Assembly: GCA_951406725.2 (NCBI GenBank)
Contig: OX597826.1
Span: 59,148,001-59,212,000, forward strand
Direction of reading: 5' to 3'
From: Octopus vulgaris
Taxonomy: Eukaryota
Length of the DNA: 64,000 nucleotides
Shown in pieces: positions 9,721 through 64,000 of the stretch (positions within the stretch are counted from its first letter, which is position 1; each line of letters begins with the position of its first letter). The notes under the pieces are model-generated. The model made no database searches. It was given only the letters and a program-made list of their open reading frames with translations, and was not told where the DNA came from. A program made the translations under genes and the position numbers.

Positions 9721-9980
9721 TATTGTTGTCTCTTGTCACGAATAAAATAAAAAGTGTTTCATCGAAATAGCTTGTAATACATAGTATTCGAACATTCTCA
9801 ACATACACTAATATACATACATACATACATACATACATACATATATATATATATATATATATATATATATATATATATATATATAGTTAATCCAAACAAG
9901 AAAGCACAAAAAAACACAACGCGTGGACGTGGAACAAATATAGTATTATTGGACGCTCAGGAAAGAAGGAAAGAAGGAGG

Positions 9981-10015
9981 GTTTAACGTTTCGAGCGGAG
10001 ATCTTCGTCGGAAGC
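9981..10015 (-). ncRNA. Degenerate minimal type I HHR-like motif in a TA-flanked element (~9885-10050)
   Basis: Minus strand: GCTT-CCGACGA-AGATCTCCGCTC-GAAA-CG-TT-AAAC. U4C core change and imperfect stems; 3' tail resembles the 36845/60870/62686 family. Confidence 0.45.
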
Positions 10016-11895
10016 ATAGGAGAAGGAAAGATCCAGAGAAGGGAAGACAGAGTAAACGGCAAAAAGAAAATGGAGGGGATACAAAAATGACATACATCAG
10101 CCGGTAGACAGTCTATTATGCCTATTTATTCCAATCAAAAGGGAGTATTATACGTACACTTGCAAAGACTGTGTGCTACAAAAATATATACTAGTAAGAC
10201 ATAAAAGAGTAAAAGATTAAAAGATCAGTTCCTTACGGCCATTTCTGCTAAGAGGCAACGATATCCTCCATGCTAGTTCTATCTCTTCAGTGTTCTGTAG
10301 GGATGGGTAGATAGAATTTGGATGTTCTGTGTACCTCTAGGCTTCACCAGAGGGTCTAAATGGTTAGAAGAGCCGATACATGCAAGTTACTAATAGGTAC
10401 AGGATATTTTTCTTATTGAAGAGGGTATAAGAAAAATAGGAGCAAGACTTAGAGCGTGAATGGAGTAAAATTTAGTAAAACGGATTAGGTGTAGGAAAGA
10501 GAAATAAGTCATAGATTTCAAGTGTTACCTTCCAAGACTCATGTTCTTTTGTCCAGTGGTGGATAGGTACGTATATTCGTTCTAAGGATAAGTTTTTTTA
10601 GAAAAGGTAAATTTAGGCTGTGGTTTTTATTTTGCTTACATATAAATACACGTTGTGTTTGTGTTTGAAAGTATGGTACATGTTCCAGAGGTGGAAGCCT
10701 ATATGTAGGATGCCAGTTGGTAATAAAAGAGATTATGGCACCAAAGTATTAAAGTTGGTACTAAAGAGAGTGGTGACCAAATTACGGTGTTCGTGTTCCT
10801 TATTTTTTCGATCAACAAGTCCCTGAATCCTTTTTGTGCTGTGGTAATGGTCAGTCCTGCAACTTAATTGGTCACCTATTTTTTTTTGAGAACTATGACG
10901 CGGTTCCGGTTCGTTGATGGTTAACAGACAACACAAAAACAAATCAGATAAATAAATAAGTAAATAAATAAATTTTAAAGTAAATGGAAAAAAAACCGTG
11001 GCCATTATGGGCAAGCAGGGGAGCAACATAACATTCAACTAGATTAAATTAAATTCAATTAAATTAAATTAAGACAAGTAAATAAATAAATGAGCATGTA
11101 AGTGACTATGATAACTAAAGCAATATGATTAAGGTGATATGATCTTAAGGGACCGCATAAAGGAAAGAATAATATGAATTATTGCAACCGTATAAAAATA
11201 AAAAAATAAAAATGCAAAATATCTATCTATCTATCAGGGGAATCAGTTGTCTTGTTAAATATAATATAGGAGCTGGACAGAACATTCATTTTTGTTGGAA
11301 TAAAGAAGATTTTCTGACAGGGACAACAAATGGAACGGACCGGATCGATTGCTTGTATTTCTGAGTTATAGTTATTTATTGGTAAAAACTATACCAGTAG
11401 TCGATATATATATATATATATATATATATATATATATATATATATATATATATATGCATAAATGTATATATATATATATATATATATATATATATACATA
11501 AATATATATCCATACATATAGATATATAGATAGATACACGCATATACACGCTCATATACAAGTAAGTATAATTATATGTGTACATAAATATCATTCTATC
11601 TATCATATATATATATATATATATATATATATATATATATAAAGGTTAGTAGAGTTAGAGGTTGGAATAACCGTCTAAGGGATAAAAGTATCCGTTGTAC
11701 TACCAGTATAAACTTGTACATACACATGTAAGCATATTATATTGTTATTATGACGCTCATAGATTACAGGTGATGAGAAAGAAAATCAGGAGTTTATCAG
11801 GCATAAAATTTAAAGCAAATAGAAAATAGAGAAATATTGATCAACAACAATTGACTTACATCAATTATTATTTTTAGTTTAATACTGATTGACTG

Positions 11896-12248
11896 TATCC
11901 GATCTAACACCTGTTTCTGCTTCCAATGCTACATGGTATTGACATTGATATTCTAAAAATAATATTCATCATATTTGGTAATAAATCCGATTCGGAACAT
12001 GGAGATTCATCAGTGTGAAGAAAATGCATACATAAAAGAAAAGAAAAGAAGAGCATCGAAAGGAAAAGGAAAAGGTTCTTCTTTTCTTTTCTTTTCTTTT
12101 CTTTTTTTTTAAGAACTAACTTTTCTTCACTCTGATGAAGCTCCATGACCCAGATCGGATTTAGTGCCAAATTTGATGAATATTATTTTGGGGATATCAA
12201 TGACAATACCACATAACATCGGAAGCAGAAACAGCTGTTAGATGGGAT
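11896..12248. mobile_element. Aged inverted-repeat element; each arm carries a type I HHR with a long stem II insert
   Basis: Right arm (+): CTGATGA 12132-12138, stem II GCTCC...GGAAGC, GAAA 12228-12231, palindromic stem III CAGCTG, TT. Left arm has the reverse complement (TCATCAG 12007-12013; AACACCTGTTTC 11906-11917). Arms carry many mismatches; stem I is imperfect. Confidence 0.72.
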
Positions 12249-12910
12249 GTATTCTATTTGCATTTAGTTAAAAAACGAAAATTGGCGTATGACAATTTTT
12301 GTTCATCAATATTTCTCTGTTTACTTTATATATATATATACACACACACACACACACACATATATATATATATATATATATATATATGGTATATTCAAGT
12401 TTTATCGTAAATATTTTATTGCTGAATTCCATGAAAGTATGACTATTATCATTTACCTTCAGAGTTGTAAGGCTTGGCAACTGAGAAGCAATAACCATTC
12501 AGAAACACCGGTGTCACTAAATCTCGTGTGCTCTCAACACACATCATTTAAAGGAAGCTTTCTGATCAGCATGGCACCAGTGATGTAGGAACTCATTTCT
12601 ACAGCTGACTGAACTGTAGCAACGTGATACATAGTGGCTTGCTCAAGGACATATCAGAGAGCTCGATCAAGTAATCGAAGTCACTATCTTATGATTGTGA
12701 GCCTGATGCTCTAAGGAGTCATGCACCTAGATATATATATATATAAGGAGCCATGCACCTTCACTATATTTATATATATATATATATATATATATATATA
12801 TATATATATATATATATAAACACTATGAAAAAAGCATGACGATAGTACGATATATACAAACAAACATATATGCATACAGGTATATATATACATATACATA
12901 TATATATATA

Positions 12911-61306: not shown

Positions 61307-62685
61307 CAATTATATTTATATAAAAAAACTTTTTGTAAAAGTTCCTACCGATATTGTTTCTCTTTCCATACCGAAACTACTTGGTAAAACTTATTAATTA
61401 TTAAATCAGCAATTCTTTACCCTTTATCTGTAATATATATATATATATATATATATATATATATATATAACGTACATTAATATACGTGTATATATATATA
61501 TATATAACGTATATTAATATACGCATATATATATATATATATATATATATATATATATATATATATATGTGTGTGTGTGTGTGTGTGTGTGTGTGTGTGT
61601 GTATGTGTGTGTGTGTGTATGTGTGTGTGGCGGTGAGTCAGCATGCCTTTAGCCCAATGACTGAAACAGGCAAAAGATAAAAGATACAAACACAGATACA
61701 TACGTATATATTTGTGTGTGTATATTTAACTATCTATCATGCTCTCTATCTATCTGTCTGTCTATCTATCAAACTCTCTATCTATCTTTCGTTCTCTCTA
61801 TTTACACTAATATATATATATATATATATATCAAAGACAACGTGACCCTCTATAATAATTACGTTCATGATTTTGCATATTCATAATTTATGTGGAGCAG
61901 TATTTAAACATAAGCGAACTCTCCTTGAGATACAAAGATATATCCAATTCACATTTTACAAAGATCTATGCCGGAATTCTATTAGTCAACCACGAAGAAG
62001 AAATTCTAATAAAATATTTAAGACGTGATTCAGCTAGCTTAGAAAAGCAGCAATGTCTCTCAAACAGGATCCTTTTCAAAGCGAAGTTTATTTCCACCAG
62101 AGTTTGTTGAATTTTAATGCAACCAACCAATATTTGAAACATGTTTCCAATATATCGGAAAGGGGTCTGGGATGTCTCTAATATATCTGAAAAGGATCTG
62201 GGATGGACGGTGGGTGTAATAATATTGTGCATTTTTGTCGGCAGGAGGGCCCTGCATCGTCATGAAAAATCAATCTAGTTAAAGTAGGATGGATGTCTAA
62301 CACGTTATCTTCCCTACATTATTGTGGTTGTTGGTGTTTAACCCTAAGCCAATCCTGGTCGAGTAAAATCACGAAAGGCATTCAAGCCATGACTGCCGGG
62401 TTTATATTTAGAGATGTTTTTTTTATTTGTTTCAGTCCTAGCACTGCGGCCATGCTGGAGCATCGCTTTGAAGTGTCTCATCCTAGCATTTATGCTTTAT
62501 AACTAGTACTTATTCTGACCTTTCCTTTCTCCGACCTGTTACGTTACGTTGCGGGAAAGTAGAAAATAAAACCAACGACAGTACAGAGTCGGTAGTGGGG
62601 TGGCTGTTGAACTCGTTCAGAAGAATACCCACCCATAGTAATGTGTGTGTGAGTGTGTGTATGCATGTATCTACATATATATCTC

Positions 62686-62924
62686 CCCTTCTTCTTAGCC
62701 CTCCTGAGTGACCCTTCTATCTGGCATTTGCCATGATAGATCGCTAGCCACTACACATTTTTATTTTCTCTCCTTGTTTCTTTCTGTGTTCCTGTCTGTA
62801 GAAGAGTGTAGGCTCGAAACGTTGAAGACTTTTTCACTTCCCGAGCGTTAAACAAATACATCTGTTTGTTGTCTACACCATCTGTCTTCGTCTTTTGTTT
62901 TTTTTTTGTTGTAAATTCTCCCCT
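62686..62924 (+). mobile_element. Third copy of the minimal-HHR mini-element (motif at 62792-62827)
   Basis: CTGT-CTGTAGA-A-GAGT GTAG GCTC-GAAA-CG-TT-GAAG; shares ATGATAGATCG.TAGCCACTACACA with 60870; ends at (TA)n. Confidence 0.72.
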
Positions 62925-63862
62925 ATATATATGTATATATATTTATATATATATATGATAATATATATATATACATGTATATACATATATACATATATAT
63001 ATGCCTATCTATCTATCTATCTATCTATCTATATATATATATGTATATATATATATATATATATATGTCTATATATATATAGACATATATGCATGTATCT
63101 ATCTCTCTATCTCTCTGTATGTATATACATACTACGAATCTTTTACTCTTTCTTTTAATCCCTCATTCTTTCTTTCCTCTTTTCTTTTTCTCGCTCCTCC
63201 TCACCCACATTTCTCTTTCTCTGATCTTTCTATTTTCCTTCGTTATCTCCCTTGTACCTTTCTTTCTGTCCCTTCCTCTCTCTCTCTCTCACTCTGGTTC
63301 CCCGCTTAATTCTTCAATCCCTCTGCCCCTACCTCTCTCTTTTCCTTCCACGTGACCGGTGTTCGGCCAAGCATGGTTTTTCTTTCTTGGCCCGATCGCC
63401 GCCCGTACAGCACCTCTTGTTTTCCTGTCTCCTGACTTTCATCTATATTTGTGCTTCGAAGCTTTCTCACCACACGCCAGCTCAACTAGATTCGTCCTTA
63501 TTAGTCGAAAGACACCTGTTGTTATGCTCTTGTTTGTATATGTAATAGTGTAACATTTTCTCCGTTATGTCGTTTTTTTTGTCTGTGTTGTCGTGCACAT
63601 TTGCTTGTAATCTTCCAAAAAATGTTATGCTCTTAGCTTAGATTCTTGGGGCCAGTCAATTTTGAACAGTCTCAAGTGTAACACGTCGAAACTATAATGA
63701 TAATTTGAAAACTCGGCTGATAAATATAAGGCCATGAATGATCTGTGCTTTGTATCGTCTATCTGTCCGTATATTTTTGTTGTCGTCTGTTACGTTCTTA
63801 TTCTATGTTTTGGGATTTATCTATCTATCTATCTGTCTATCTATCTATATATATATATATAT

Positions 63863-64000
63863 GTAGGTCCCGGGTTGAGTCGGGGTTAACCACAGTAAAT
63901 AAGGTACTCAATACATAGCAGAGTAACTTAATTTATTTTATAGAAGGAGCTTCTACAGGACTAGAACTGCTTCATTCAAATGAAATCATCAGGAAGCTTC
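63863..64000 (-). mobile_element. HHR mini-element of the 60411 family, running off the window end; HHR at 63948-63998
   Basis: Same terminus GTAGGTCCCGGGTTGA.TCGGGGTTAACCAC next to (TA)n. Minus: AGCTTC-CTGATGA-TTTCATTTGAAT-GAAG-CAGTTCTAGTCCTG-TA-GAAGCT (A15.1G substitution). Confidence 0.88.

Follow-up and report, generated by a model that had tools for sequence, protein, structure and literature searches.

Hammerhead-bearing insertions in (TA)n microsatellites of Octopus vulgaris: probable end-copies of Penelope-like elements and retrozyme-like arrays

Penelope-like elements (PLEs) and retrozymes are the described systems closest to the hammerhead-bearing insertions analyzed here in a stretch of 64,000 nt of Octopus vulgaris (contig OX597826.1, positions 59,148,001 to 59,212,000, referred to as the window; 34% GC), part of a 2.80-Gb assembly of 227 contigs. 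As far as the accessible text of the sources goes, PLE repeats carry minimal hammerhead ribozymes of low activity, by thousands per genome, in opposite-strand pairs and with U3-A8 (PMC4209133), and the PLEs of the Hydra clade have inverted 5′ copies and tails, (TA)n targeting and hammerheads being the rule (PMC8557442). Retrozymes devoid of long terminal repeats (LTRs) were described in coral, mussel and axolotl (150-450 bp, GC <45%), where linear and circular RNA accumulates; the main text of that paper mentions neither octopus nor any cephalopod (PMC7229834). A survey of 35 genomes, none from a mollusc in its accessible text, derives retrozymes (units of 51-972 bp) from PLE repeats, reports cleavage of one dimer out of nine and discusses local growth of the satellite type (10.64898/2026.07.22.740005). 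The protein of Poseidon, a PLE of Anolis, nicks and extends both strands of AT-rich DNA in vitro; its reverse transcriptase (RT) starts at two internal sites of an unprocessed RNA, which define the tail, and the hammerhead cleaves only with the protein (PMC11167929). In rotifers, a TATA box and an initiator (Inr) were found in the pseudo-LTR (pLTR), and head-to-head junctions were read as antisense self-priming, a sense template being possible (PMC3846280). A repeat annotation of an octopus reports 31 recently active Penelope-like families, the word ribozyme being absent from its accessible text (PMC13282606).

The class of elements found in the window is therefore already published, including minimal PLE hammerheads by thousands, opposite-strand pairs, U3-A8, (TA)n targeting and retrozymes. 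What is new here is where the short copies of two families (F and C) stop: 30 nt past a TATA box and in no case at the cleavage site of the ribozyme. This footprint is likely that of an RT running off the 5′ end of uncleaved RNA. We consider it probable that the (TA)n microsatellites hold two kinds of insertions, end-copies of PLEs, the short ones produced by such a run-off mechanism, and retrozyme-like arrays (families B and E), copied by the same kind of enzyme. No report of these elements in a cephalopod was found in a literature search that did not extend to supplements (such as the family tables of PMC8557442), Repbase or Dfam, which may list them; with the same scope, neither an A6U hammerhead nor a pile-up of PLE copies at a transcription start was found.

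Insertion ends, coding parents and tandem arrays

The 5′ ends of family F were read on 70 of the first 78 matches to its tail on contig C1, aligned to natural long copies and numbered from the A of AGCTTC (+1), on the 5′ border of stem I; cleavage would follow +45. They pile up at this border: 25 lie on +1 and 37 in +1..+6, followed by 14 in +7..+40 and one at +68; 8 others lie in -199..0 and 10 beyond -200. None lies in +41..+55, and the idea that cleavage sets the start of the short F copies was rejected (0/70). The full intact ribozyme is kept in 28 copies, and 46 are short two-armed head-to-head palindromes, 44 of which also have (TA)n at their other end, with junction sequences that vary from copy to copy. 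A TATA-like box lies 29 nt before +1 in all 10 long arms, which represent three subfamilies with diverged spacers. In family C, where the reference base is the A of TCAGAT (30 nt past TATAAG, 58 nt ahead of the core), 25 of 43 arms (paired arms sharing one junction) stop in -2..+5, the others ending downstream (n = 12), in -248..-3 (n = 2) or being long (n = 4). A TATA match would fall within any given 3 nt with a probability of 0.5%. Families H and D show a similar upstream edge without TATA; for H, located at TCAA, 56 matches were found just upstream compared to 6,043 at the motif, and some strongly negative 5′ positions of H and D are alignment artefacts due to (TA)n or (CA)n (L120, L129, L349, L352, L354). 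Copies without an adjacent inverted arm share the stop site (window 54175, L313, L163, L227, L325, L327, L328). From these patterns, we infer that the stop of the short copies is the 5′ end of the element RNA. In a few copies (L143, L306, L219, L331), +1 is immediately preceded by an unexplained G that belongs neither to the parent nor to the inverted arm, as copying of a cap would leave.

The initial annotation, made from the letters of the window, had described self-standing, non-coding mini-retroelements and had proposed to extend them 5′ in search of frames encoding RT and GIY-YIG domains. This extension succeeded for three families (a 713-aa frame for F, a Neptune-type frame with RT for D and a GIY-YIG frame for C), whose short copies are thus the ends of coding PLEs; only B and E are tandem and non-coding. 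Long F copies run upstream through a 2-kb TG/TA-rich 3′ untranslated region (UTR) to a GIY-YIG-like frame (L033), and in tandem copies (L178/L179, L181, L182; period ~5.2-5.7 kb) F makes up the terminal repeat, the order being 3′ UTR, TATA box, hammerhead, tail, ATG and RT/endonuclease frame. This frame (722 aa open, 713 aa from the ATG in L178) contains RWR38, DKT116, YRDD, CNCPDKTTC567 (CxCx5C), YIG, CDLC667 (CxxC) and CMH695 (CxH), CX2-5CxxC being absent. A genome search with the F protein gave 150 scored matches, nearly all >80% identical, and the protein has 1,117 relatives of ~700 aa, some with PF01541/PF00078. The insertions show the anatomy of PLEs, namely a pLTR tandem, an inverted 5′ copy, a tail at one end and a (TA)n target, and on its motif content and this anatomy the F parent is classified as a Hydra-type PLE. 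Family D lies 0.8-0.9 kb behind a Neptune-type frame (L125, L126, L335), which in L335 shows YIDD, CSRPRCHTC, CISCSLC and YIG, with a CX2-5CxxC linker before GIY-YIG and the RT upstream; C lies at the same distance (0.8-0.9 kb) behind a GIY-YIG frame (L220/L221). Long copies of H and of A have 0.8-1.2 kb of upstream sequence in common within each family, and H, A and G are likely also short end-copies of coding PLEs.

Two other PLEs were considered as parents. The decayed PLE frame that had been noticed at 8540-9720 and taken as the mobilizing lineage is real (tblastn E 8.5e-10), but its remnant (8550-9600), 26-35% identical to the F protein, is an old relative belonging to a different family and the parent of no motif family. 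An apparently intact PLE (L045:775-4683, contig C1 ~37.063-37.067 Mb) encodes a 775-aa RT and GIY-YIG frame (Pfam PF00078, PF01541), preceded by a separate overlapping 557-aa frame without Pfam match. It was rejected as the F parent since it ends in its own terminal repeat, in which no canonical hammerhead was seen by eye.

Families B (~360 bp; 362 nt, 46% GC) and E (589 bp; 37% GC) form dispersed head-to-tail arrays with one type I hammerhead per unit and up to nine (B) or six (E) units per arm. Their units are too short to hold an RT, no tblastn match of three PLE proteins was found across 60 loci, and a search for a coding partner sharing the B tail found none. Among 21 B insertions, 14 are two-armed, all with ends at unit positions 174-179 and 219-235, and the seven single arms end at 179 or 223; E arms end at ~197-210 or ~297-312. 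More generally, two fixed positions, separated by 42-100 nt, mark where F, C, B and E insertions give way to (TA)n, each arm using one of them. The inner junctions of B and E are scattered round the unit, with arrays in both arms; in one B insertion of 9 + 4 units, the arms are 99.8% identical to each other and 96.8-98.2% identical to other arrays. Monomers folded as circles are more stable than shuffles (z -5.6 for B, -4.7 for E). B subfamilies swap CCUAGG and CCAUGG in stem III, keeping the palindrome, and U3-A8 and C3-G8, compensatory changes suggesting that both the fold and the palindrome through which dimers form are under selection. Among the runs listed for the E unit, none is recorded as RNA; it was found in contigs of four runs whose RNA origin is a guess (30/30 bins covered, unit junction crossed, mostly CCGAUGA core), but this coverage is equally compatible with a circle, with tandem transcription and with DNA, and is not used as evidence. 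Overall, B and E are likely retrozymes that parasitize PLEs and are copied by PLE enzymes, and the attribution of the hammerheads to PLEs and retrozymes is borne out, F, C and D being tied to PLE frames and B and E being retrozyme-like.

Hammerhead families in the window and in the genome

A recognisable motif was found at or near every one of the 15 sites initially reported. The window contains the following PLE-related features:

8550-9600, plus strand: remnant of a decayed PLE frame (RT thumb, GIY-YIG-like end), interrupted by stops and, at 9018-9211, by 194 bp of (TA)n; tblastn segments with the F protein at 8550-8831, 8849-9010 (E 8.5e-10) and 9402-9596 (E 0.001)
9885-10065, minus strand: short copy of family H; U4C minimal hammerhead at 9985-10011, stems I and II damaged; (TA)n 99 nt downstream
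11641-12330: old head-to-head pair of family A; motifs at 11906-12013 (minus) and 12132-12239 (plus); canonical core, long stem II, stem I unformed
21732-22237, minus strand: retrozyme-like insertion of family B, 1.1 units of the 360-bp repeat plus an inverted arm, (TA)n on both sides; complete type I hammerhead at 21953-21986 (minus), U3-A8 core, palindromic stem III
24531-24735: short insertion of PLE type with two arms, from a further family, the truncation falling ahead of its hammerhead-like motif; not in the initial annotation
30206-30576: head-to-head pair of family C; motifs at 30320-30349 (minus) and 30476-30505 (plus), U3-A8 and A13C; arms ending in (TA)n, 42 nt apart; junction at the putative transcription start
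36843-37033, plus strand: short copy of family D; minimal hammerhead fold, A6U core at 36904-36931
37072-37381: palindromic insertion of the second B subfamily without the ribozyme part; arms ending at unit 223 and 177; not in the initial annotation
46663-47126, minus strand: retrozyme-like insertion of family E, partial 589-bp unit; complete canonical type I hammerhead at 46812-46891 (minus), long stem II, palindromic stem III
51368-51720, minus strand: decayed copy of family G; motif at 51522-51580, core damaged, stem I lost; related fragment at ~30700-30830
54175-54236, plus strand: single-armed short copy of family F, beginning on the putative +1; hammerhead at 54181-54219; (TA)n 17 nt downstream
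60410-60608: head-to-head pair of family F; hammerhead at 60503-60541 (minus) with tail; copy at 60549-60587 (plus) without tail, stem I one base shorter
60870-61058, plus strand: short copy of family D; A6U core at 60936-60963
62735-62943, plus strand: short copy of family D; A6U core at 62796-62823, stem I broken
63862-64000, minus strand: arm of family F with tail; motif at 63954-63992, GAAG for GAAA; extends past the window end

A longer copy of the family of 24531-24735 (L253:8611-8955) folds like a hammerhead, its stem II being 7 bp long and A9 replaced by C. A second short remnant resembling the F protein lies at 67-267 (minus; tblastn E 2.7e-05, 36%).

Motifs were searched with a type I descriptor (core CUGANGA or UUGANAA, stem I ≥5 bp, stem II ≥3 bp, GAAA, stem III, UH) and compared with 40 block-wise dinucleotide shuffles of the window. 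Four cores pass, 54181(+) and 60541(-) of F, 46891(-) of E and 21986(-) of B, the last with U3-A8, compared to a mean of 0.15 (maximum 1) in shuffles, so that the density is above that of shuffled sequence, a check on which the initial proposal had staked itself. Their local folds form the three-way junction, except for 54181, whose minimum-energy fold is an alternative. Half of the eight sites described as canonical are thus complete, the others being incomplete: 60544(+), at an inversion junction, has a stem I one base short, 63948(-) carries GAAG, and 12126(+) and 11900(-) of family A have the core but almost no stem I. Families D, C and H and sites 63948, 51515 and 12126/11900 fall short of a complete type I hammerhead. 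The sites reported as variants carry traits of whole families rather than noise in D (36904, 60936, 62796), C (30349, 30476) and H (10011), and only 51580 is a decayed copy, of the old family G.

The motifs were thought to form about six unrelated families; the multi-copy nature stands, but there are seven families with a motif (A, B, C, D, E, F, H) plus the decayed G, and D and H, which have stem II and downstream sequence in common, are not unrelated. Exact pattern matches in the genome, which are lower bounds and for which the reversed-pattern control gave 0 every time, range from 43 to 16,881: D 16,881, H 6,043, F 5,322 (tail 3,114), E 450, B 237 (tail 1,735), A 213 and C 43. Core changes are family-wide: D has CUGU-N-GA (A6U) in 96/100 of the matches listed, position 7 being free, C has GCAA (A13C) in 43/43 genome matches and H has CCGACGA (U4C) in 89/100 of the matches listed. 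The 11 canonical-looking H cores are the same 11 copies that show C-to-T at a CpG in the loop and are therefore likely decay products. Since CpG decay turns CCGACGA into CUGACGA (L248, L272 and the H matches listed), some of the copies counted by the descriptor had no canonical core when they transposed. The U4C change is shared by the second B subfamily and by 28 of the 50 E insertions whose core is readable (3/53 without readable core); the idea that a slower U4C core leads to longer arrays was unsupported, arms with at least two motifs being found in 14/28 U4C and 5/22 canonical E insertions (Fisher p 0.078). According to the accessible text of PMC3088659, core changes mostly cut hammerhead activity drastically, and U4C has a much lower activity in vitro but still allows viroid infectivity. 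Given these data, we expect weak cleavage, or none, in the largest families, D and H.

The association with (TA)n is confirmed, mostly at fixed distances from the motif within a family. A (TA)5+ tract lies ≤250 nt downstream in 30/30 genome copies of F, 19/20 of C, 18/20 of H, 23/30 of B, 21/30 of D, 11/30 of E (many being inner array units) and 6/20 of A, compared to 17% of random genome positions and 34% within the TA-rich window. At the 15 sites, (TA)n comes 17-264 nt past the cleavage position. (TA)5+ makes up 7.1% of the bases of the window and 2.7% of 400 kb sampled elsewhere.

This sample, 40 hand-picked 10-kb stretches from 25 contigs with five shuffles as control, yielded 12 complete canonical motifs with the strict descriptor (a few probably due to chance and some being products of CpG decay) compared to 0-1 per shuffle (mean 0.6). 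Complete canonical motifs thus occur at ~1 per 35 kb (95% range 20-71 kb), and not at one motif per 4-5 kb as would follow if the window were typical of the genome; the window is ~2x denser and much richer in F, no copy of which occurs in the 400 kb. The expectation of a large unannotated load is nevertheless confirmed, with ~40,000-140,000 motifs per genome. No Rfam hammerhead reached the gathering score in seven loci covering six families, and none was among the matches listed (150 of 620) in a whole-window scan dominated by microsatellite hairpins. As to the loop 1-loop 2 tertiary contact, family B aligns along Hammerhead_HH9 below the threshold (19 bits, E 0.017, gathering score 52), with no comparable alignment for E or F. 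The sample also contains at least six further hammerhead families absent from the window (L249, L253, L255, L256, L259, L273, L275).

Other features of the window are broken frames at 39135-39995 (plus), which we take to resemble a non-LTR RT, a short interstitial TTAGGG-like array at 35030-35100 and two abundant families similar to short interspersed nuclear elements (SINEs; 140-300 bp, copies 85-92% identical):

6057-6290, 28974-29213, 29466-29702, 33609-33829, 34407-34663 and 51976-52221: first SINE-like family
2177-2474, 4042-4198, 21234-21540 and 37490-37643: second SINE-like family

Run-off copying and its alternatives

In the mechanism that we propose, a promoter in the terminal repeat would start the RNA at +1, and the element protein would nick both (TA)n strands and reverse transcribe the uncleaved RNA from two internal sites, as the anole PLE does in vitro, the two fixed ends of each family corresponding to these two RT start sites. 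From the first pair of sites, close to the RNA 5′ end, both cDNAs would run off after 60-170 nt and be joined head to head, giving palindromes without promoter that would make up the bulk of the copies and, being devoid of a TATA box, would be dead ends. Multimeric or circular RNA of B and E may serve as template for the same kind of enzyme, which would thereby insert arrays that are already formed. As for the ribozymes, we predict that they cleave weakly, with help from dimerization or a protein, and that insertion does not require them.

Chance matches in AT-rich repetitive DNA could be suspected since no Rfam match reaches the gathering score and 11 of the 15 sites fail the strict descriptor; given the excess over shuffles (4 vs 0.15 in the window, 12 vs 0.6 in the sample), which refutes chance for F, B and E, and the family-wide conservation, N7 being free, with compensatory exchanges both at 3-8 and within stem III, its probability is practically negligible. 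The reading of the initial annotation, in which each short unit is a self-propagating element transcribed and recopied as such, draws on the thousands of near-identical short copies, on the 56 upstream matches of H against 6,043 to its motif and on the missing coding parents of H and A. It is very improbable in our view, because the F palindrome junctions vary between copies, the short copies have no TATA box, the same subfamily letters occur in long coding parents and the tail is found on either arm, as fresh insertions predict. For B and E, in-place growth of satellites by unequal crossing-over from single terminal-repeat insertions, without RNA step, would account for the higher identity within arrays (99.4-99.9%) than between arrays (96.8-99.2%); we give little credence to it, since the arrays are dispersed with (TA)n ends at the same two unit positions, units are near-identical on both arms of one inverted insertion and inner junctions are scattered round the unit.

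A more serious competitor, although it seems to us unlikely, is that the 5′ ends pile up where a short palindrome allows fold-back or self-priming, possibly of an antisense RNA, or at a 3′ splice site, instead of at a transcription start. AGCT (F) and TCAGA (C) stand at the junctions, the accessible text on rotifer Penelope proposes antisense self-priming for head-to-head junctions (PMC3846280), and that on the D. virilis element describes an intron ending at the 5′ edge of helix I (PMC4209133). Yet the edge is one-sided, with many ends just downstream and almost none upstream, TATA lies at -30 in two unrelated families, copies without adjacent inverted arm share the stop, H and D, mostly single-armed, also show the edge and, as to splicing, the AG is retained and no common upstream exon was seen.

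Several points weigh against run-off copying as proposed here. The F and C junctions sit on short (near-)palindromes, and the YAG before the F motif resembles the D. virilis 3′ splice site, so that fold-back or splicing may contribute to the accumulation of ends. According to the accessible text of PMC2377424, the internal promoter of D. virilis Penelope has no TATA box. The F sample comprises the first matches on C1 and is not random, eight listed copies in long stretches having been left out; Pfam gave no RT or GIY-YIG match on the F protein itself; no coding parent was found within ~6 kb upstream of eight long H and six long A copies, and no coding partner for B or E. Finally, transcription start, cleavage and circular RNA are predictions.

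A wider reading, which we advance tentatively as possible, is that most of the ~10^5 motifs would be by-products of PLE copying by a dimeric enzyme on capped, uncleaved RNA with run-off at the cap, the centres of palindromes mapping promoters to the base. The top lineages would have independently fixed attenuating cores (U4C three times, A6U, A13C) without losing the fold or the palindrome of stem III, which would mean that selection tunes these ribozymes down or maintains them in a non-catalytic role; retrozyme arrays would be inserted ready-made by PLE enzymes.

In their accessible text, previous works leave open how head-to-head inverted ends form, what PLE hammerheads do and what mobilizes retrozymes (PMC8557442, PMC3846280, PMC11167929, 10.64898/2026.07.22.740005). 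The thousands of young insertions found here bear on these three questions: their junctions predict exact transcription starts, the tail signature of PLEs recurs in the retrozyme arrays, and cleavage assays could use sister subfamilies, which differ at single core positions, as ready pairs. If true, the run-off reading would show how PLEs copy themselves. The large ribozyme-like load, invisible to Rfam, could have effects on intronic RNA, provided that at least a fraction of it cleaves. The added value of this work is thus the anatomy of the insertions, which makes PLE copying and retrozyme mobilization directly testable.

Comparison with described elements

The comparisons below rest on the accessible text of the cited sources. 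Like the PLE hammerheads of PMC4209133, those of the octopus are of type I, with a palindromic helix III and an extra base after A9, and reside mostly in truncated copies. They differ from them by their number (2,000-9,000 reported, compared to ~80,000 complete motifs estimated here), by family-wide A6U and A13C cores and by the 7-bp helix III of F. Family F shares with the Hydra clade (PMC8557442): (i) RW(K/R), DKT, the CxCx5C linker, CxxC, CxH and a C-terminal endonuclease, (ii) the hammerhead in the terminal repeat, and (iii) (TA)n targeting, the inverted 5′ copy and the tail. F, which was placed by motifs, is distinguished by a 2-kb microsatellite-like 3′ UTR, by the length of its tail (72 nt) and by the large excess of palindromic copies (150-200 bp) that stop at the putative start.

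Families B and E resemble animal retrozymes by their non-coding head-to-tail repeats, one type I hammerhead per unit and an RNA predicted to be structured, and B has a U-U at the base of stem II like axolotl HHR_Amex2. The size of E (589 bp) exceeds the 150-450 bp of PMC7229834 but falls within the 51-972 bp of 10.64898/2026.07.22.740005. Unlike published retrozymes, the main subfamilies of B and E carry U4C, and each insertion has a PLE tail, an inverted arm and a (TA)n target, features that were not used as evidence in those works. Lastly, the copying proposed here, with two internal starts that define the tail, both target strands nicked and extended, an AT-rich target and an uncleaved template, matches what was described for Poseidon (PMC11167929); whereas Poseidon is one element in vitro, the insertions analyzed here would represent the predicted in vivo by-product of such copying, in thousands of genomic copies and in other clades.

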